A stretch of 64,000 nt of DNA from Parcubacteria group bacterium Gr01-1014_20. Its GTDB lineage: Bacteria > Patescibacteriota > Minisyncoccia > UBA6257 > 2-01-FULL-56-20. Within the stretch, counting starts at the first letter, position 1, and each line of letters starts with the position of its first letter. This document shows, piece after piece, positions 2,521 to 52,273 of this stretch. The stretch lies in contig VMFW01000002.1 of assembly GCA_007376265.1 (NCBI GenBank), forward strand, positions 13,970-77,969, written 5' to 3'. The notes below the pieces were generated by a model that saw nothing but the letters and a program-made list of their open reading frames with translations, was not told the origin of the DNA and made no database searches. Both the position numbers and the translations under genes were made by a program.

Positions 2521-3399
2521 CTATAACCTGAAAACCGTTTTAGCATTTCCCCAAATTTGATCGGCCATCTCTTCTTCAGAAACTCCTTTAATTTCCGCCA
2601 GCTTCCGAACCACGTAAACCACATACGCCGGTTCATTTCTTTTTCCCCTAAACGGCTCTGGTGCCACATACGGCGCATCCGTCTCTGATAAAATCCGATC
2701 CATCGGAATCATCTTGATCACTTCCTCATAAGCACCAGCCTGCTGCCCGGCCTTCGGCGGGAAAGTTATCACCCCCCCAAATGTAAAGGAAAATCCTAAA
2801 TCCAAAAGTTTCTTAGCGTCCTCGATTGTCCCGGTGAAAAAATGAATAACTCCCGGCTTATCGTTTAACTTAGCCTTATTCACCTCGAGAATTTCAATCA
2901 AATCCGAAAACGCATCTCGACAGTGAATCATGAGTGGCTTTTTAACATCAAACGCCAACTCAATCTGACTCACAAAAGCCTCCGCTTGCCGTTTTTTGCT
3001 CCCCTCTCCCAATCTAAAGTAATCCAATCCACACTCCCCTATCGCCAATGTCTTCGAATCCAATGCTAATTTTTTGTAATATTCGTAATCAAAATCTTCG
3101 CCTCTTGAGGTGAATCCGCCTTCATCACCACCAGCACCCAGCTCCTTAACGTCATGGTAAGATTTCTCCGTATGAATCGGGTGCAAACCCACCACCGCCC
3201 ACACGTCCTCTGCGAATTCATGAGCTACTTCCACTGCCTTCGCCGAAGTGTCTTTCTGCGTCCCAACATTTATAACCGCAACGCCGGCTTCAAGAGCTCG
3301 GCCAATTACTTCTTTATAATCCTCTTTAAACGCCGCAAAATGCGCGTGCGTATGGGCGTCAACGTACTTGGTTTTAGGCATATTTGAAAATATTATCAT
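2521..3399 (-). CDS. tatD: TatD-family metal-dependent hydrolase/DNase
   Basis: YVDAHTHAHF metal-binding motif near the N-terminus, TIM-barrel hydrolase pattern, and GECGLDY. The true start is probably MPKTKYVD at about 3381. Confidence 0.85.
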   Translation of the reverse strand: MIIFSNMPKTKYVDAHTHAHFAAFKEDYKEVIGRALEAGVAVINVGTQKDTSAKAVEVAHEFAEDVWAVVGLHPIHTEKSYHDVKELGAGGDEGGFTSRGEDFDYEYYKKLALDSKTLAIGECGLDYFRLGEGSKKRQAEAFVSQIELAFDVKKPLMIHCRDAFSDLIEILEVNKAKLNDKPGVIHFFTGTIEDAKKLLDLGFSFTFGGVITFPPKAGQQAGAYEEVIKMIPMDRILSETDAPYVAPEPFRGKRNEPAYVVYVVRKLAEIKGVSEEEMADQIWGNAKTVFRL

Positions 3400-3449
3400 A
3401 AGGCGCTAGGATAAAAATAGACCTTAAACAACTAGAAAAGGAGGCAAGC

Positions 3450-4178
3450 ATGACGGCTCAAACCGCAACGGTAACCTGGTATGGCGCTTTTGAACTCAAG
3501 CGAGACTACCAGAAACACCTTCGCTACGGCATCACCTTTGCCGCACTCTTCGCACTGTCAGTACTCGGAGCCTACAAAACTCTCGTCACCGAAACCATCG
3601 CTAAAAACGAAATCATCACTGTTTACGAACCACCACATCCGGTTCCACCGCCCCGAACCAGAGATCGCGTGCCTTTGCCGCCAATAGTCACTAACGCCGC
3701 TCCGCCAGTGCCAGTAATCGGCATCCCCACTCCAGTACCCGATGCAGAAGTTGCAGAATCACCAGTTTTTCCTACGAAGAACGAAATTGCCAACACAGGT
3801 CCTTTCTCTCCTGAAGGCACGGGTACAGGCAATAACGCGATAGTCGACGTCCCCAACGGAAACTTCGGCGACTACTTTCCAACCCCAGACGAATTCATGG
3901 CTGTCGAAGAAATGCCGGTCATGATAAGCAAGGTCTCACCCGTTTATCCCGAGGTTGCCTTACTCACCAATCGAGAGGCTACGGTTTGGATCAAAGCCCT
4001 GATTGACAAAGAAGGCAGGGTTCGGGAAGTGCGCATCGCCAAATCCTCTGGATCAAATGTTGGTTTCGACGAGGCCGCTCTAGACGCTGCCTGGAAAAAC
4101 CTCTACAAACCAGCCATTCAAAACGGCCGCCCGGTTGCGATCTGGGTTACGTACCCAGTCGAGTTCAAACTCAAATAA
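3450..4178 (+). CDS. TonB C-terminal-domain protein (N-terminal TM anchor, Pro-rich spacer, TonB_C domain)
   Basis: TM helix GITFAALFALSVLGAY, spacer PPHPVPPPRTRDRVPLPP, and C-terminal PVYPEVALLTNREATVWIKALIDKEGRVREVRIAKSSG...NGRPVAIWVTYPVEFKL typical of TonB_C. Confidence 0.7.
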   Translation: MTAQTATVTWYGAFELKRDYQKHLRYGITFAALFALSVLGAYKTLVTETIAKNEIITVYEPPHPVPPPRTRDRVPLPPIVTNAAPPVPVIGIPTPVPDAEVAESPVFPTKNEIANTGPFSPEGTGTGNNAIVDVPNGNFGDYFPTPDEFMAVEEMPVMISKVSPVYPEVALLTNREATVWIKALIDKEGRVREVRIAKSSGSNVGFDEAALDAAWKNLYKPAIQNGRPVAIWVTYPVEFKLK

Positions 4179-4244
4179 AGGAGAGGCGTCATGAACCACA
4201 CCTGGGGTAAACGCTGGGCTCGTGTGCTCGGCTAAAACCATAAA

Positions 4245-4271
4245 GGCGCGGAAACAAAACCGCGCCTTTTT
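4245..4271 (+). terminator. rho-independent terminator GGCGCGGAAACAAAACCGCGCC + T5 (copy 1 of a duplicated module)
   Basis: 7-bp GC stem, T-run; identical 28-mer at 5299..5327. Confidence 0.65.
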
Positions 4272-4998: not shown

Positions 4999-5297
4999 AA
5001 TACAACAAACTGGTCCGAGACAAAATACCGGACATCATAAAAACAAAAGGTGGAGACTCAAAGACCCATCTCGCCACACTAGAAGAATACCTATCAAAAC
5101 TCGGAGATAAACTTCGAGAAGAGGTGGAAGAATTCCTGAAAGACAAAAACCCGGAAGAGTTGGCGGATATCCTCGAAGTCATCAAAGCGTTCGCAAATCT
5201 CCAAAGCCTAACACTCGCTGACATCGAAAAAATTCGAGCAAAAAAAGCCGAGGAGCGTGGTGGATTCGAAAAACGAATTATCCTCGAAGAAACCTAG
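4995..5297 (+). CDS. MazG-like / phosphoribosyl-ATP pyrophosphohydrolase-like nucleotide pyrophosphohydrolase
   Basis: 100 aa all-alpha: MKYNKLVRDKIPDIIKTKGG...EELADILEVI, the characteristic KLVRDKIP N-terminus of the PRA-PH/MazG-like family; ATGA overlap with the HAD gene. Confidence 0.65.
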   Translation: MKYNKLVRDKIPDIIKTKGGDSKTHLATLEEYLSKLGDKLREEVEEFLKDKNPEELADILEVIKAFANLQSLTLADIEKIRAKKAEERGGFEKRIILEET

Positions 5298-6751
5298 AGG
5301 CGCGGAAACAAAACCGCGCCTTTTTTTACCTCCAAATTCTTATCGTCTATCCAAACGATACTCTGAGAAATTTTCCCTGCAGTCTCTGGCAAAAACGGCT
5401 TAAGCAACCCCGCCACGTTATCTAAAATTACAACTAAGTTCAAAATTTCCTTTTTCTTAGACTCCGCCTCTTTCCAAACCTCGTGATCATTTACATATTT
5501 ATCGCCGAAAGAAATAAGTTCGTTTATAGCCCCAATCGCCTCGTGTAGTTTAAATTCATGAATTTTCTTGTCGAGCAAATTTCTGGCGGCCTCGATTTTT
5601 TCCTTAACCGAAGTTTCAACCTTCGAAAATTCCACCTCAAATTTTCCAAATTTTGAAGCTAGGCCTAAAACTCTGGCCGAGAAATTGCCTAAACCATTCG
5701 CCAATTCTCCGTTATAAACTCGCTCTAGATTAGCAACGCTAAAATCTCCGTCCTCATGCGACGGCACTTCTTTCAAGAAATAATAGCGCAGAGCGTCCGT
5801 ACCGTATTTTTTGACCAATTCAATTGGGTCAATCACATTGCCAACCGACTTAGACATCTTTGCTCCCTCAATCGTCAGAAATCCATGCACTAAAATGTGT
5901 TTTGGTAACGGCAAACCTGCCGACAAAAGCATCCCCGGCCAAATCGCCGCGTGAAATCTCAAAATATCTTTCCCAATTAATTGCGCATCCGCCGGCCACC
6001 ACTTTTTCCAGTCTTCGTTTCGGCCATATCCAAGCGCTGAAATATAGTTAGTTAACGCATCGCACCACACGTACATCGTCTGACTAGGATCTCCCGGAAC
6101 CGGCACTCCCCAGGGCAAATCCTTACTCGGCCTAGAAAAACTTACATCTTCCAAACCCTCACTAATCAAAGCCAAAATTTCGTTCGCTCGCCCTTCAGGA
6201 ATTATTCGTAATTCATTATTCCTAATTCGTAATTCTATTTCTTTAGAGTATTTTGATAGTCGAAAGAAATAGTTCTCCTCCTCCACTACCTCCGGCTCCC
6301 TCTGGTGATCTCGGCATTTGCCGTCTACTAAATCTTTTTCGGTAATAAACTTCTCGCACCCTACGCAGTAAAGCCCTTTGTAGTTCTTTTTATAAATATC
6401 GCCGGCCTCAACCAGTTTTTTCCAAATCAACTCCACTCCTGGCCAATGCCTTTCTTTATCGCTCGTCCGAATAAAATCGTCCCAGCTTAAATTGAGCGCG
6501 CCTTTTAGCGCCTTGAAACTCTCCACAATTTCATCCGTAAACACCTGCGGCTCTTTCCCGGCCTCTTGGGCTTTTCTGAAAACCTTCACTCCATGTTCGT
6601 CTGTGCCCGTTAAGTAAAAAGTTTCAAAACCCTTAGCCCTATGATACCGCGCCAAAACATCCGCCTGCACCTTTTCAAGCGCGTGCCCGACATGCGGAGG
6701 CGCGTTCGCATAATCAATCGCCGTTGTAATGTAATACTTCTTCTTTTCCAT
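5294..6751 (-). CDS. metG: methionyl-tRNA synthetase (short form)
   Basis: HVGHALE (HIGH-like), CVGCEKF...CRDH zinc knuckle, KMSKS motif, C-terminal LFPRL. Confidence 0.9.
   Translation of the reverse strand: MEKKKYYITTAIDYANAPPHVGHALEKVQADVLARYHRAKGFETFYLTGTDEHGVKVFRKAQEAGKEPQVFTDEIVESFKALKGALNLSWDDFIRTSDKERHWPGVELIWKKLVEAGDIYKKNYKGLYCVGCEKFITEKDLVDGKCRDHQREPEVVEEENYFFRLSKYSKEIELRIRNNELRIIPEGRANEILALISEGLEDVSFSRPSKDLPWGVPVPGDPSQTMYVWCDALTNYISALGYGRNEDWKKWWPADAQLIGKDILRFHAAIWPGMLLSAGLPLPKHILVHGFLTIEGAKMSKSVGNVIDPIELVKKYGTDALRYYFLKEVPSHEDGDFSVANLERVYNGELANGLGNFSARVLGLASKFGKFEVEFSKVETSVKEKIEAARNLLDKKIHEFKLHEAIGAINELISFGDKYVNDHEVWKEAESKKKEILNLVVILDNVAGLLKPFLPETAGKISQSIVWIDDKNLEVKKGAVLFPRL
5299..5327 (+). 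terminator. terminator hairpin GGCGCGGAAACAAAACCGCGCC + T7 (copy 2); it overlaps the last 10 codons of convergent metG
   Basis: Identical 28-mer to 4245..4271; its minus-strand translation gives the metG C-terminus KKGAVLFPRL. Confidence 0.6.
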
Positions 6752-7420: not shown

Positions 7421-7617
7421 AGTCGTCTCCTCTCATCGCGACAATGTTCTCTAACCACAAGAACTGCGTCGCTTCTAAAGCAGTCGTCCGATTCCGTCGG
7501 AACACGGGATCCTTGGCTCTCAAGGAACTAGCCATCTTATACTACTTCCTAGTCGTCCCGTCAACCGTCCTCCCCCTTCAGTTTCAAGAAGGTTGAGGAC
7601 AAAAGAATAGAAGCTGG

Positions 7618-7757
7618 AAGTTTATTTGAGAAAGCTCTCGGAGGCACAAAAGCTTGGCTCCCCTGACGTTACGTCGGGGGATTTTTGTGCCGAGAGGCAG
7701 CGGGCAATTTTCGCGGGAAAAATTGAACCGCGATTTTGAAAAGAAACTTCCGAGCGA
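7618..7757 (-). repeat. structured intergenic element, copy 1 of 3 (abuts the 3' end of the M16 peptidase gene)
   Basis: Shares TTTATTTTGAGAAAGCTCTCG..GCCGAGAGGCAGCGGGC core with 9071..9196; outer stem CTCTCGGAGGCACAAAA/TTTTGTGCCGAGAG with inner hairpin CCCCTGACG/CGTCGGGGG. Confidence 0.55.
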
Positions 7758-9023
7758 CTAGAATTTCAAAATCTTCCTGAAACTCTCACTTTCTTTGTAT
7801 GGCCCAATCACCGCCAAGTTAAGTCCTCGATCCACAAAAAGCGTCTTCGCCACCGCGCGAATCTCCTCCGCCCTAACCGCTTTCACGTTTTTAATAACTT
7901 CCTCTGGCTCTTTGGTTTTTCTCGTAATTATCTCTTGCCCACCGTAATAGCTGGCCAAATCGTCCGATCCCTCAAGTCCCAAAATAAAATTCCCGATTAA
8001 ATGGTCTTTAGACTTCTGAAGCTCTACCTCCGGCACCAATTCCGTAGTCAATCTTTTCATTTCTTCCAAAACCGCTTTTATAACAATCTCAATTTTTAAG
8101 TGATCCACGCCAGCCGCGACCGACATATACCCATGGTCCAGTGTTAAATCGGAATCAGCTTTCACATAATAGGCCGCCCCTAAATCATCTCTCACCTTGC
8201 GAAACAATCGCGAGCTCATCCCTCCGCCCAGAACGTTCCCCAAAACTTGAAGCGCGTGTCGCCTCTTATCAAAAACATCGAAAGCTCGGACTCCTAGTAC
8301 TAAATGGCTCTGGTCTGACTCTTTAAATTTTATCGAAAGCTCCGGCTTAGACTGTTTTTCAGTTGTCTTCAGCTTCTTAGGCGCCGGCAATTTTTTCAAA
8401 TGGCCAAAAGTTTCCTTGATCTGTCCCAAAACGTTTTTCTCTTGAAATGCTCCGGCCACGACTACCACCGTCTTCGACGCCACATAGTGTTTGGTTCGGT
8501 AAGTTTCAAACTGATCCCGCTTAAGCTCCCTAATCACCTCCTTTCTCCCAGCGATATCCCAACCTGCCGGTTGATCACCATACAAAAGCCCCGAAAAAAG
8601 TTCGTGCACCCTCCTCATCGGCGTGTCTTCATACATGTTAATCTCCTCAATAATCACGCCTCGCTCTTTCTCAATCTCCTCCGGAATAAAAATCGGATTT
8701 AGATATAAATCCGACACCAAATCCAACGCCTTTGCAATTTTCTCTTTCTGAACCTTAGCGTAATAACCCGTATACTGCCCTCCCGTGAAAGCGTTGTACT
8801 CCGCCCCCAAGCTGTCGAGTTCATTGGCAATCATCCCCCGTTTTGGTCGATTTTTAGTGCCTTTAAACATCAAATGTTCCAGGAAGTGGGACAAGCCATT
8901 GATATTTTTCGTTTCGTATTCCGACCCAGCCTCAACCAAAATCAAAACCGTCGCCGCCAAAGTGGATGCCTGCGGCACCAAAATCACCCTCAAACCGTTC
9001 TTTAAAGTTAACTTTTTATGCAT
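7758..9023 (-). CDS. M16-family zinc peptidase (insulinase-like)
   Basis: Inverted zinc motif HFLEHLMFKGT (HxxEH), 421 aa, two-domain M16 layout. Confidence 0.9.
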   Translation of the reverse strand: MHKKLTLKNGLRVILVPQASTLAATVLILVEAGSEYETKNINGLSHFLEHLMFKGTKNRPKRGMIANELDSLGAEYNAFTGGQYTGYYAKVQKEKIAKALDLVSDLYLNPIFIPEEIEKERGVIIEEINMYEDTPMRRVHELFSGLLYGDQPAGWDIAGRKEVIRELKRDQFETYRTKHYVASKTVVVVAGAFQEKNVLGQIKETFGHLKKLPAPKKLKTTEKQSKPELSIKFKESDQSHLVLGVRAFDVFDKRRHALQVLGNVLGGGMSSRLFRKVRDDLGAAYYVKADSDLTLDHGYMSVAAGVDHLKIEIVIKAVLEEMKRLTTELVPEVELQKSKDHLIGNFILGLEGSDDLASYYGGQEIITRKTKEPEEVIKNVKAVRAEEIRAVAKTLFVDRGLNLAVIGPYKESESFRKILKF

Positions 9024-9070
9024 TAAGTCTATTTATACCAGAAAAAACTCGAATACAAAAATTTCGAGGA

Positions 9071-9196
9071 TTTATTTTGAGAAAGCTCTCGAAGGCGCGA
9101 AAAGCTCGGTCTCCGCCAAAGCGGGTTTTTCGCGCCGAGGGGCAGCGGGCGATTCATCACCGGAGTGAATCGAACCTCGGTTTCGAGAAACATATC
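9071..9196 (-). repeat. structured intergenic element, copy 2 of 3 (between the transglycosylase-like gene 3' end and the M16 peptidase start)
   Basis: Homologous to 7618..7757 with compensatory changes in the outer stem (CTCGAAGGCGCGAAAA/TTTTCGCGCCGAGGG versus GGCACAAAA/TTTTGTGCC) and different terminal hairpins. Confidence 0.55.
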
Positions 9197-9208
9197 CTCA
9201 AAATACCT

Positions 9209-9634
9209 CTAGCCAGTGAGCGTTTTTATGTCATCTCTAAATCGGTTCGCGCGACTAACTACCGCTTCTCCATAAGTCCAAAGATAGCTCCTCCAACGAC
9301 CGCCAGCGTAATACTTTGCCGCGGCGCACCTTTCTCGGCTCGTCTGATTAGAATACAGGTCAGTACAACCCCTCATGGCATCTTTAAGATACAAACCCGT
9401 CGCCACAAAAGCGTCAGCATGACTCCAGGGGTTAGCCGGGGAATTGCCGGTTATTTTCGAAACTGCATCCTTATAAAGTTTCCAGGTGGAAGGAATAAAC
9501 TGCGCCGGACCCATTGCGCCGCCATAGGCGCCATCCTTGTTAGCGCAGGAAACGAGAACCGCCGAAGAATCCTTGCTAATCCCAAGCTCTTTTAGTATTT
9601 CCTCAAATATCGGAATGTCCCTCTTGGGATGCAT
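9209..9634 (-). CDS. lytic transglycosylase-like domain (C-terminal segment of a frameshifted gene)
   Basis: [13 protein letters not shown] motif typical of MltB/SLT-type lytic transglycosylases; overlaps 9603..10616 by about 30 nt in the -1 frame. Confidence 0.5.
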
Positions 9635-10616
9635 CGCCGTTGTACAAGATCATCGCGGGATCAATCCCGGTAGACTGCCCGGCCAACTTTGCAAACTTAT
9701 AGGCCTCATCAAAACTTAGTTCTCCTCCGCCAAGAAGTTTGAAAATTCGGCTCCTAATTTCTGCGGCTGTTTTCTTGGTTTCCGTAAGCAAACCTTGATA
9801 CTTACTCTCTTGCCCTTTGGTGATATCGAGCAGACCATTCTTCTGGGTTTTAGTCTTCTCGTTTTCTTGCTTCTGGACCTCCTGGTACTCCCGGAGAGTC
9901 GTCTTGTCGGACTTAGCAAGCGATAGCTTATCCTTTTGGTCCTCTAGCTGATCCCTAAGGTCAGTGACTTTGGAAATAGTTAGCTGCAAATTGTCTTGAA
10001 TGAGAATGATGTTGTTTACATCGTTGAAAAAATCGGACAACTTAGGACTCTTCAAAAAAACCTCCATCAGGCTTGTCTGATCGCTAGCCTGAAGGTTCTT
10101 TATCAAAACCGACAAAGACTCCTTATTTTTTTCAATATCGCCTTCAGTCGTTACAATTTGATACTGGGTCTCTACGATTTTTTTATCCAACTGGCTGATA
10201 GTCAAATTAATCGCCTTTATCTCGAGGCCAATCTTAGAAATTTTATTATTCAAATTACTTATCTCCCCCTTTAATGTTTTACCCTGTTTCTGATAGCTAA
10301 CTATCTGGTCTTCATATTGATCAATCTGGCCCTCAAGTTCTTTAAGCTGAACCTCTAAGGCTTCTCTCTCATTTTCATCCAGAGTATTATTCGCCGCCAA
10401 AGTTGCTGTCGTGGGAGCCACTGCTGAACCCAAAATCAAAAAAGCCATGGCGAAAACCGGCACTATCACTTTCAAGGTGTTGAAAATCGGTATACGCTTG
10501 GCTACATAATACGACAGGTTAATCCTTTTTGGTAAAGGTGAGAAGGAATCACCCCCCCCTACCCTACTCGGTGATTTTATGTCGCGAAGAATCTTTGGTT
10601 TTAACAAATTAGACAT
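9603..10616 (-). CDS. coiled-coil protein with the start of a transglycosylase domain (N-terminal segment of a frameshifted gene)
   Basis: Signal/TM segment [15 protein letters not shown], long heptad coiled coil, ends ...[24 protein letters not shown] then a premature stop. Confidence 0.5.
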
Positions 10617-37911: not shown

Positions 37912-38379
37912 TTACTTATTTAAGTACACCGAATCGCCGACCTTAAATCCATACTTCGCCACCGTCCCCGCGTTTACCTCGAGCACCCGATCCACCGCTT
38001 CCGGCGGGTAATAAGTTTTTAAACCAAAAACCGACTTCTCCGGCTCCGGTTTTGCATTTTCTTGAAACCCCACAATCCGCTCACCCTTGATCCAAATAAT
38101 ATCAATCGCAAACTTCATGTCCTTCATCCAAAACCCATGATTTCCCGGCGAGTCAAAAACAAAAAACATCCCCTCGCTATCCTCCAGTTTTTCCCGCCCC
38201 GAAAGCCCTTGCGACCGACTCATCATGGTATCTGCCACATCCACGCTAAAAGTTTGATCATTAATCCTCACCTCCCCTTTCCCAAGGTTAGCTTTCCCTT
38301 TAAAACCAAAAAACCAGCCCCCGACCACCACCAAAACCACAATTGTAATTAGAGACCAAATCAATTTTCTATTTCTCAT
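37912..38379 (-). CDS. DUF192 (COG1430) family protein with N-terminal TM anchor
   Basis: GLSGRE..L....GMFFVF......FWMKDMKFAIDIIWI pattern of DUF192. Confidence 0.75.
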   Translation of the reverse strand: MRNRKLIWSLITIVVLVVVGGWFFGFKGKANLGKGEVRINDQTFSVDVADTMMSRSQGLSGREKLEDSEGMFFVFDSPGNHGFWMKDMKFAIDIIWIKGERIVGFQENAKPEPEKSVFGLKTYYPPEAVDRVLEVNAGTVAKYGFKVGDSVYLNK

Positions 38380-38873
38380 TATCTTTCTACTAGTAAATTA
38401 TACACCACAATCCCCGCCGCGACCGATACATTCAAAGACTCTTTCTTCCCTCGCATCGGAATCTCCAAAATTTTGTCGCACTTATCCAAAACCAATTTCG
38501 GCAACCCTTTGGTTTCTTCGCCAAGAACGAGAGCTATTTTCTTATTCTTAACTTGTCTCTTGTCTCTACTTAACTTGTAACTATAGTACGGCACCGATCG
38601 CTTATCCTGCTCCACTGCCAAAATATCGTATTCATCAGACTTCAACTCTTTTAACAATAAACTTGTCCCTTGTCTCTTTTCCCATGTCACTGTTCGCTCT
38701 GCCCCGAGCGCCACCTTCGCAAAATCCGCCCGAAATTTCTTAAATCGATCCAAAGGTGTCGGCGTCACCCCCACCAAATAAATCTTCGAAACTCCCGCCC
38801 CATCGGCAGTTCTGAATATCGAAGCTACATTATATACACTCCGAATATTATGGAGGATGAGTGTTAAATTCAT
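38379..38873 (-). CDS. SpoU/TrmH-family RNA 2'-O-methyltransferase (TrmL-like)
   Basis: LILHNIRSVYNVASIFRTADGAG, LVLGEETKGLP and IPMRGKKESLNVSVAAGIVVY (SPOUT knot motifs). Confidence 0.8.
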   Translation of the reverse strand: MNLTLILHNIRSVYNVASIFRTADGAGVSKIYLVGVTPTPLDRFKKFRADFAKVALGAERTVTWEKRQGTSLLLKELKSDEYDILAVEQDKRSVPYYSYKLSRDKRQVKNKKIALVLGEETKGLPKLVLDKCDKILEIPMRGKKESLNVSVAAGIVVYNLLVER

Positions 38874-38896
38874 GCTTGATTTGTCTCAGCAAAAAT

Positions 38897-38960
38897 TTTT
38901 ATTTTTGAGAAGCTATCGGAGGTAACGTAGGTGGCCGAGATGCAGGCAAATTTTCAGTAG
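38897..38960 (-). repeat. structured intergenic element, copy 3 of 3 (short deletion variant, abuts the guaA 3' end)
   Basis: TTTATTTTTGAGAAGCTATCGGAGG...GGCCGAGATGCAGGC retains both ends of the 7618 and 9071 elements with the internal hairpin deleted. Confidence 0.45.
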
Positions 38961-38997
38961 AAAATTATGCCGGTTCTCAAAAAGAAAAGTTTGAGCG

Positions 38998-51739: not shown

Positions 51740-52011
51740 TCCCCGGTAGCTCAGCGGTAGAGCGGATCCCTGTCGGATAGGCAGCCTATAAGAGTAATCT
51801 TATTTGAAAATTTCGGGATAACGGTGAACCCTTCGATATGCTTTTTGGGCATATAAAGGTAACACCGTGGGAACCCCGCCGAGGCGGGGGCACCGTAGAG
51901 ACTAGATACCGAAACATCCCACCCAGGATGATGATATAGTCCACGCCCTTTGGAAACTTTGGGATAAGTGTAAGGATAAGGTCGTAGGTTCGAATCCTAC
52001 CCGGGGAGCCA
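51740..52011 (+). tRNA. tRNA-Asn(GUU) interrupted in the anticodon loop (after U35) by a group I intron; exons 51740..51773 and 51971..52011, CCA encoded
   Basis: Exon 1 is TCCCCGGTAGCTCAGCGGTAGAGCGGATCCCTGT. Exon 2 is TAAGGATAAGGTCGTAGGTTCGAATCCTACCCGGGGAGCCA. The joined product folds as a canonical tRNA with anticodon loop CUGUUAA and is nearly identical in D- and T-arms to Bacillus-type tRNA-Asn. Confidence 0.7.
51774..51970 (+). ncRNA. group I intron (~197 nt, small IC3-like, no ORF) within tRNA-Asn
   Basis: 5' exon ends in U paired to a GCAG internal guide (U.G wobble), intron ends in G; P7 from R-like CCGTAGAGACTAGA and S-like GATATAGTCC; stable hairpins TATAAGA/TCTTATA, ATATGC/GCATAT, CCCCGCC/GGCGGGG; resembles the 205-nt Azoarcus tRNA-Ile intron. 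Confidence 0.7.
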
Positions 52012-52048
52012 AATAAAAATACTCGATGTTCGATCGGGTATTTTTGTT

Positions 52049-52067
52049 TCTCGGGTAGGATTCAAAC
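52049..52067 (-). repeat. inverted partial copy of the tRNA-Asn 3' end (TCTCGGGTAGGATTCAAAC)
   Basis: 15 of 16 match to the reverse complement of GTTCGAATCCTACCCGGG. Confidence 0.35.
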
Positions 52068-52155: not shown

Positions 52156-52179
52156 TTCGATTGCCTACCCGGGGAGCCA
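52156..52179 (+). repeat. direct repeat of the tRNA-Asn 3' end (att-like): TTCGATTGCCTACCCGGGGAGCCA
   Basis: 23 of 24 nt shared with tRNA positions 51989..52011 (TTCGAATCCTACCCGGGGAGCCA), 145 bp downstream of the tRNA. Confidence 0.6.
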
Positions 52180-52273
52180 GTAGAAAACTTAGGTCAGTTT
52201 TAGGAAAATTTACGCGATAAAAAACGCCCAGTTCGTATTTGAGCCAGGCGTCAAATTTTTGATCTGGGCGAGT

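Follow-up and report, generated by a model that had tools for sequence, protein, structure and literature searches.

The 64,000-nucleotide stretch of the Parcubacteria group bacterium Gr01-1014_20 analysed here (contig VMFW01000002.1; hereafter the window) harbours three copies of a dispersed family of elements of about 135 nucleotides (nt), each copy being an imperfect palindrome. Here, we report the fold of this family, which was previously uncatalogued and is new to Rfam, the strand on which it folds, its bias in orientation and position relative to neighbouring genes, the gain and loss of its copies, and an in-frame copy within mnmA, the gene of a tRNA 2-thiouridylase, that has been inherited vertically. 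The reading to which we give most weight, while holding it at a little less than an even chance, is that of a non-autonomous, structure-dependent intragenomic repeat resembling the REPINs (paired repetitive extragenic palindromic, REP, sequences) or the Rickettsia palindromic elements (RPE), of which the active form would be the single strand antisense to host genes.

The element is built from a long closing stem and a three-way junction with two arms. Read 5' to 3', it starts with the closing stem of 18–24 base pairs (bp), of which the outer part (P1) is variable and the inner part (P2) semi-conserved (UUUUGAGAA/UUCUCAAAA). Next come the conserved stretch AAGCU(C/A)UCGGAGG and the arm P3, in which a 10-bp stem (P3a) is followed by a conserved bulge of 7 nt, GCUUGGU, confined to the 5' side, and then by the hairpin P3b. 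P3 is followed by the conserved stretch CCGAGA(G/U)GCAG and by P4, a helix of 3–4 bp bearing the hairpin P5 with the loop CGCUGGA, and the 3' portion consists of GA(A), P4', CGGUU, P2' and P1'. Pairing between the two conserved stretches yields a helix of 4 bp, a bulged G and a tandem G.A/A.G beside P3a. About 45 bases of the junction, the bulge and the loops are nearly invariant, and the stems vary freely yet stay paired. The variable positions of the two conserved stretches pair with each other (N29–K89), as C-G in 19 sequences and as A-U in 14; a simple CUCUCGG/CCGAGAG register is broken by the A/U variant and was rejected, while a register shifted by two accounts for the switch between C-G and A-U. 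Candidate pseudoknot partners of the GCUUGGU bulge (AGC of the junction, or CCGAG) sit at invariant positions.

The support for this fold equals that of good Rfam families. In a MAFFT alignment of 35 sequences, not fitted to the structure, 89.8% of the cells pair, against 39–50% when the partners are slid, and double changes are found in 45 of the 52 pairs; the observed values were reached in none of 500 shuffles. A covariance model (CM) was built from 35 family members and used on the window and the relatives, and the CM-based alignment of 49 copies was 91.7% paired, with double changes in 46 of 49 pairs. Across the family the closing stem (helix 1) has double changes in 18 of its 19 pairs. 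A first-pass annotation of the window had proposed a structured family with compensatory stem changes, and the pairing, the double changes and the shuffle test all bear this out. The pair-preserving change that it had seen between copies (GGCACAAAA/TTTTGTGCC versus GGCGCGAAAA/TTTTCGCGCC) is real, but what it took for the long outer stem is P3a, the basal stem of one arm, outside which the closing stem P1+P2 encloses the entire element.

The sequences are asymmetric in a way that distinguishes the two strands. With "+" denoting the strand of the window as read, the flanking genes of all three window copies lie on the − strand. In the paired columns G.U or U.G occurs 72 times in the + sense, in addition to one invariant U.G, against 34 occurrences of A.C or C.A, and G.A or A.G is found 78 times against 16 for C.U or U.C, the G.A cases being often in tandem and located within P5 or P3a. 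The predicted RNA stability is stronger for the + sense in 50 of 52 copies, with means of −65.0 and −57.3 kcal/mol and a mean advantage of 7.7 kcal/mol; for copy 1 the values are −61.6 kcal/mol on the + strand and −51.1 on the − strand. Judged from these asymmetries, the strand selected for folding is the + strand, antisense to the flanking genes. The GC skew of the + strand is very strongly and uniformly negative (−0.12 to −0.30) throughout the window, even where genes are on that strand, which makes it probably the lagging strand. All three copies contain more G than C (41/27, 40/33 and 24/12) on this otherwise C-rich strand, and the usual C-to-T bias of the leading strand would yield A.C, not G.U, on the + strand. 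Since the copies thus run against the local skew, and the known bias predicts the other mismatch, mutation bias does not appear to be the cause of the asymmetry.

On the folded strand only, the P3 arm looks like an intrinsic terminator by its sequence. In 19 of 47 copies a U run comes after P3b, and P3a strongly favours A in its 5' strand and U in its 3' strand. Triloops make up about half of the loops of P3b, most often C-GAA-G and C-AAA-G.

Relatives were sought in one genome per GTDB species with the pattern AGCTNTCGRAGG-N16-46-CCGAGRKGCAG, which gave at least 118 loci (fetched relative loci are labelled by L-numbers); about forty were true relatives among the matches listed. Many matches in high-GC genomes (Phenylobacterium, Streptomyces and others) lie within open reading frames (ORFs), fail the CM and were set aside. 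A CM search for homologues had been proposed along with the first-pass annotation, and it recovered more than 60 relatives: 49 copies came from the first 100 sources, a further 6 from the other loci and additional ones from loci fetched later. Nearly all are from metagenome-assembled genomes (MAGs) of Patescibacteria, labelled Liptonbacteria, Wolfebacteria, Colwellbacteria, Harrisonbacteria, Spechtbacterales, Paceibacterota, Parcubacteria, Peribacteria, 'Patescibacteria group' and 'Saccharibacteria'; L005 and L002 bear labels from outside Patescibacteria. Several genomes contributed two or three sampled copies, and seven loci of at most 8 kb contain two, sometimes less than 2 kb apart. No known family was matched by the window, for which Rfam 15 gave nothing at gathering thresholds in the 64 kb and, with E allowed up to 10, no hit above 18 bits in the surroundings of copies 1 and 2. 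The literature searched gave no account of such an element in Patescibacteria, nor of in-frame palindromic elements in genomes of the Candidate Phyla Radiation, though its coverage was incomplete and an earlier description is possible.

The copies are highly diverged, the most similar pair being 83% identical and the median 51%. Stem variants (GGCGAAAAAG/CUUUUUCGCC and GGCAAUUCGAG/UCGAAUUGCC) recur across different genomes, which suggests that the element has sub-lineages. In L099 two copies of opposite orientation (2832–2964 on the − strand and 3300–3432 on the + strand) lie 335 nt apart, with a near-identical P3 arm and different closing stems and P5 arms. This shared arm, together with the converse case in L055 and L075, hints at the exchange of whole arms between copies. 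In L004, L024, L051, L105 and L118 another imperfect inverted repeat, likewise conserved, encloses the element (5' side, GGCCTCGCTCGC...CCGC; 3' side, GGCGGAGC...CCCGCTCGGCC); this outer repeat of Liptonbacteria-type loci suggests nesting in, or extension by, a second repeat.

The element is biased in its orientation relative to genes. Outside mnmA, and with orientation classes taken from our own ORF calls, 25 copies are antisense to both neighbours and 5 are sense to both (binomial p ~3e-4), 6 lie between convergent genes and 5 between divergent genes. In 17 copies the folded strand has its 3' end no more than 30 nt, and mostly 3–12 nt, from the stop codon of a convergent gene; only 2 copies end as close as 30 nt to the start of a gene on the same strand. 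The closing stem often extends right up to the stop codon. On the 5' side the element is separated from the next gene by a spacer with a median of about 90 nt, which in L064 and L066 holds an extended −10 box for that gene. Flanking gene families are nearly all singletons with no common functional theme, and those beside the window copies are by Pfam an M16 peptidase, an SLT-domain protein, guaA, a SpoU methylase and a protein of 188 amino acids (aa) without a Pfam match. In most cases the gene downstream is convergent, and almost no flanking family recurs, which is not the picture of a riboswitch or another cis-regulatory leader. The family had been described as always immediately 3' of minus-strand genes, and this holds for the window; it does not extend to the family as a whole, which also occupies other contexts, including the in-frame site in mnmA.

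Copies of the element are gained and lost over short evolutionary scales. A metagenome scan with the M16 peptidase yielded 80 loci (51–95% protein identity, 364 kb), in which the CM found one element, away from M16, as against three in the 64-kb window. The closest M16 relative, L124, with 95% protein and 85–88% coding-DNA identity and the same gene order, is without copies 1 and 2 and has an extra ORF of 174 aa after M16. Its spacers are unrelated to those of the window, and insertion boundaries can therefore not be defined from an empty site. No element is found in the spacer between the SLT-domain gene and M16 in L124 or L125; L106 has a copy in that spacer and none after M16. Between EF-P and mnmA, L122 carries a copy of 115 bits where L121 has a spacer of 8 nt. 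An element whose invariant core measures about 45 nt cannot have originated de novo each time and has therefore presumably been copied to new sites. After M16 in L124, where copy 1 would be, positions 3836–3915 are occupied by a different palindrome of about 80 nt, CAAATTGGATGGC ... GCCATCCAATTTG, enclosing a CCCCGCCAAAGCGGGG hairpin and a T run, which may be a member of another repeat family.

The gene mnmA contains the element in L055, L075, L094 and L114; there, between the conserved motifs ATGHYVR and KDQSYFL, it runs antisense to the gene, keeps the reading frame and has no stop codon. A protein search with the MnmA of L055 returned 120 close homologues from Patescibacteria, and in the 112 in which both motifs could be located their spacing was 27–33 residues (the minimal form) in 15, 67–80 in 47 and 120 in one. 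The last of these, P0102 (446 aa), has its 120 residues between ATGHY and KDQSYFL, as if two elements, or an element and another insert, stood in tandem at one site. Both peptide signatures derived from antisense translation of the element's motifs were present in 17 MnmA homologues and one signature in 9; the sources are CGGUUC for TG.., the CGCUGGAG loop for PA, the AGCUUGGU bulge for DQA and GAAGCUNUCGGAGG for SE[ST]F. The DNA of nine homologues had the antisense element at the same site in every case, with scores from 131 down to 28 bits, and at least 11 genomes carry a stop-free element in mnmA. Among 11 well-preserved orthologous copies, in an alignment fitted to the model, 90.9% of the cells pair and double changes are seen in 42 of 49 pairs, with G.U outnumbering A.C by 23 to 10 and G.A outnumbering C.U by 25 to 5. 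Compensation is stepwise, as exemplified by P3a, which reads GGGCGUUCGG/CCGAACGCCC in L114 and GGAUAUUCGG/CCGAAUGUCC in L207, and L055 and L075 have an identical P3 arm and wholly different P5 arms that are still fully paired. The presence of orthologous copies with compensated change at the same site shows that the insertion in mnmA is old and vertically inherited; it is still folded in several lineages and decayed in others (L121, L122).

In the reading that we favour, the element would be copied to new genome sites and survive where it is harmless, that is, directly behind a stop codon or, in MnmA, as an in-frame part of a tolerant loop. A putative trans-acting factor would recognise the folded single strand, as either antisense RNA or single-stranded DNA. 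A sense orientation would put a terminator-like arm and a fold of about −65 kcal/mol into host mRNAs, and such damage to host transcripts may plausibly account for the antisense bias.

Several known repeat systems share features with the family. REP sequences and REPINs, which are mobilised by REP-associated tyrosine transposases (RAYT) in Pseudomonas and E. coli, are likewise dispersed non-coding hairpin repeats in intergenic positions, often at the 3' ends of genes, with many diverged copies per genome, long persistence and a supposed action as folded single strand. In contrast, a REP is a palindrome of 20–40 nt with a GTAG or CGTC tag and a REPIN is a simple doublet, whereas the present family is a 135-nt three-way junction with a core of about 45 invariant nt and neither tag. 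No RAYT gene was seen for the element within the 64-kb window, whole genomes not having been searched. The label "REP-like" given in the first-pass annotation is thus apt for a dispersed palindromic repeat and does not fit for a tagged 20–40-nt palindrome in inverted doublets. REPINs have been argued to be long-lived, selected residents of their genomes. RPE are reportedly palindromic repeats of about 100–150 bp that are found both in spacers and in frame within conserved protein genes, where they are said to add about 45 residues; they are said to be old and diverged and to lack a transposase, conserved termini or target duplication. The occurrence of the present element in spacers and in frame in a conserved gene, mnmA, is alike, with the reservations that RPE belong to another host phylum and were compared by description only. 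The present family differs from RPE in that its stems covary around an invariant core, its folded strand is antisense to the host gene and only a single in-frame site, mnmA, was found. Transposable elements of the miniature inverted-repeat kind (MITEs) such as Correia, ERIC, BOX and RUP are similar in size, inverted-repeat ends, intergenic location and presence/absence polymorphism, but their terminal inverted repeats are conserved, they are flanked by target-site duplications and their copies are nearly identical, and no such feature is seen here; the outer ends differ from copy to copy and only the P2 strands are semi-conserved. tRNA-derived short interspersed elements, T-box antiterminators, retron msr-msd, the TnpB omega RNA and the IS110 bridge RNA were also considered as resemblances and set aside, their architecture or context appearing not to fit.

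A number of observations weigh against a mobile repeat. The termini are not conserved, the ends of the closing stem show no target-site duplication, and a Pfam scan of 40 ORFs from the window revealed no transposase, reverse transcriptase or recombinase. The identity of the closest pair of copies gives no sign of a recent burst in the sample, and viral contigs contained no copy, their lone pattern match scoring 7 bits by CM. The invariant core is more elaborate than in known REP, RPE or MITE families. Judging from its sequence, the mnmA copy has undergone gradual compensated change under vertical inheritance, which a function at the level of the host would predict and which would be unexpected for a passive selfish relic. 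The elaborate core and the compensated evolution within mnmA are the two findings that a REPIN- or RPE-like repeat does not fully explain.

Both findings are better accommodated if the copies are cis-encoded antisense RNA modules, which is possible although we consider it distinctly less probable. The folded strand would then be transcribed, for example divergently from the promoter region of the next gene, and block antisense entry into the upstream gene, as a terminator or insulator, or it would serve, heading an antisense transcript, as a regulated attenuator, a ribozyme or a protein-binding scaffold. Selection on the antisense strand against the local mutational skew is consistent with such a role, as is the arrangement in which the 3' end adjoins a convergent stop codon and the 5' spacer also houses the promoter of the next gene. 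The P3b hairpin with its U run, present in 40% of copies, and the A/U bias of P3a could be read in the same way, and an invariant core with free stems is the pattern of ribozymes and aptamers. However, upstream of 50 copies no promoter-like motif was found at a fixed distance on the folded strand, a U run is absent after the closing stem, close relatives are without the element at the same loci, and the flanking genes are unrelated. The copy in the middle of the mnmA ORF has no obvious source of antisense transcription, and half of the loops of P3b are triloops, a form uncommon in RNA hairpins under selection. The antisense RNA and mobile repeat readings are compatible rather than exclusive.

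Self-cleaving ribozymes (hammerhead, twister, hatchet, pistol) and orphan multi-copy structured RNAs resemble the family in combining an invariant core with freely covarying stems and in their sporadic multi-copy spread with no consistent gene association. They differ in that no Rfam model matches at E up to 10 and in that the long closing stem and its abutment on stop codons would be atypical. That the family is a new functional RNA class antisense to host genes, either a self-cleaving ribozyme or a scaffold for a Patescibacteria-specific protein, long under purifying selection even in mnmA, is in our view unlikely. If true, one strand of the same DNA would code for a protein loop and its complement for a conserved three-way-junction RNA.

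The first-pass annotation had placed the function in the mRNA, as a structure of the 3' untranslated region such as a complex terminator or a stabiliser. The reverse complement, carried in this region or between cistrons, might then end transcripts, block 3' exonucleases or be cut by RNase III. In its favour, the element lies 3–12 nt past stop codons in many genomes, its mRNA-sense strand still folds stably (mean −57 kcal/mol), and on the minus strand copy 2 is followed by a hairpin and T6. Copy 3 fills the spacer between guaA and SpoU and is probably transcribed in the mRNA sense: with the SpoU start so close to it there is little room for a promoter, and its reverse complement is thus probably within a guaA-SpoU transcript. 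The wobble, G.A and stability (50 of 52) counts, however, favour the strand antisense to the genes, and we regard this view as very unlikely. On the mRNA strand a 7-nt bulge separates the U run from the P3b hairpin, and the hairpin with U run that an intrinsic terminator of the upstream gene would have is on the opposite strand and in fewer than half of the copies. Six copies have the same sense as the upstream gene, five are between divergent genes, and the mnmA copy is inside an ORF. A role as terminator or stabiliser on the mRNA strand is possible as a side effect, while the pattern of conservation points elsewhere.

Least likely of all is a site of single-stranded DNA whose hairpin fold is recognised by a recombinase or an HUH enzyme, as with integron attC. 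The element shares with attC a geometry in which the folded strand is antisense to the upstream ORF, the stop codon adjoins and structure is conserved above sequence, a length within the attC range and an alternation of genes and elements (SLT, copy 2, M16, copy 1). However, it lacks RYYYAAC/GTTRRRY core sites (its termini read TTTTGAGAA/TTCTCAAAA), is flanked by housekeeping genes with one copy inside mnmA and no integrase in the window, and has a folded strand that, from the GC skew, would be the leading-strand template and rarely single-stranded. The triloops such as C-GAA-G that are commonest in P3b would suit such a site, as they are very stable in DNA.

By CM the window contains three members only, all on the + strand (Table 1), and both sequence and CM place them at the sites first claimed. 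The third had been located correctly and ended too early, its 3' end being at 38992 rather than 38960; its P3 arm is reduced to a short hairpin and a tetraloop AGUA stands where the P5 loop is normally conserved. The minus-strand stop codons adjoin the copies as described, at 5, 9 and 5 nt. The 20-mer TTTGAGAAAGCTCTCGGAGG has two matches in the window at no more than one mismatch, where 0.01 would be expected, and the repeat occupies about 0.6% of the window.

Table 1. Copies of the element in the window, parts of copy 1, and adjoining genes
Feature	Position	Strand	Remarks
Copy 1, whole element with closing stem	7613..7756	+	CM match 7615–7752, 103.9 bits
Copy 1, closing stem P1+P2, 5' strand	7613..7631	+	GCUGGAAGUUU A UUUGAGAA; partner 7733–7755
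Copy 1, conserved 5' core	7632..7644	+	AAGCUCUCGGAGG; junction, short helix P2b, bulged G, tandem G.A; invariant columns
Copy 1, arm P3	7643..7691	+	stem P3a (GGCACAAAA/UUUUGUGCC), bulge, hairpin P3b, then U run
Copy 1, conserved 7-nt bulge	7652–7658	+	GCUUGGC
Copy 1, hairpin P3b	7659–7681	+	U run after
Copy 1, conserved 3' core	7690..7700	+	CCGAGAGGCAG
Copy 1, arm P4/P5	7701..7730	+	7-nt loop CGCGGGA at 7712–7718; family consensus CGCUGGA
M16 peptidase gene	7758..9023	−	stop 5 nt from copy 1 3' end; start 42 nt from copy 2 5' end
Copy 2, whole element	9066..9199	+	between SLT-like gene and M16 peptidase gene; CM match 9066–9199, 100.4 bits
SLT-domain gene, 3' part	9209..9634	−	stop codon 9 nt from copy 2 3' end
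SpoU methylase gene	38379..38873	−	start 19 nt from copy 3 5' end
Copy 3, reduced variant	38893..38992	+	fills guaA-SpoU spacer; CM match 38893–38992, 66.6 bits
guaA	38998..40563	−	stop codon 5 nt from copy 3 3' end

A fourth CM hit in the window (24 bits, 51989–52066) was rejected, as it is made up of the 3' end of a tRNA gene, a hairpin of terminator type and the same tRNA end in inverted copy, the last of which gave rise to the spurious hit. ARAGORN reported no tRNA or tmRNA in the window. What looks like a tRNA-Asp(GUC)-like gene, missed by ARAGORN and by the Rfam gathering run, lies at 51743–52013 on the + strand; about 200 nt inserted behind its anticodon loop seem to split it, and this insertion matches the Rfam group I intron at 42.4 bits (E 1.8e-9), slightly below the gathering score of 50. 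An inverted and a second direct copy of the 3' end of this tRNA (CTACCCGGGGAGCCA) are located at 52050–52063 and 52157–52182, about 40 and 150 nt downstream, and may be the remains of integration at the tRNA gene.

The SLT-domain gene is a single ORF of 486 aa in the public contig L001 and in L124, and in the window it is represented by two overlapping ORFs (9209–9634 and 9603–10616). Compared with L001, the window has an indel near 9645 and one substitution, and the split is either a frameshift variant or an assembly difference. At 4236–4271 and 5290–5325 the window has two terminator-like hairpins that are 92% identical (GGCGCGG AAACAAAA CCGCGCC TTTTT), from which it seems that the genome also employs ordinary hairpin terminators.

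Genomes of Patescibacteria are among the smallest and most streamlined of bacteria, and the retention of a folded repeat in them needs explaining. If the element is a replicator, it would be the first REPIN- or RPE-like system for this large uncultured group, with an unusually elaborate recognition structure. If it is an RNA, it would be a new and well-supported motif with more than 60 members and more than 40 covarying pairs, and a rare case of overlap between a protein loop and a structured RNA. The CM may also be used as an annotation marker and helps to avoid miscalled ORFs and supposed 'insertions' in MnmA.

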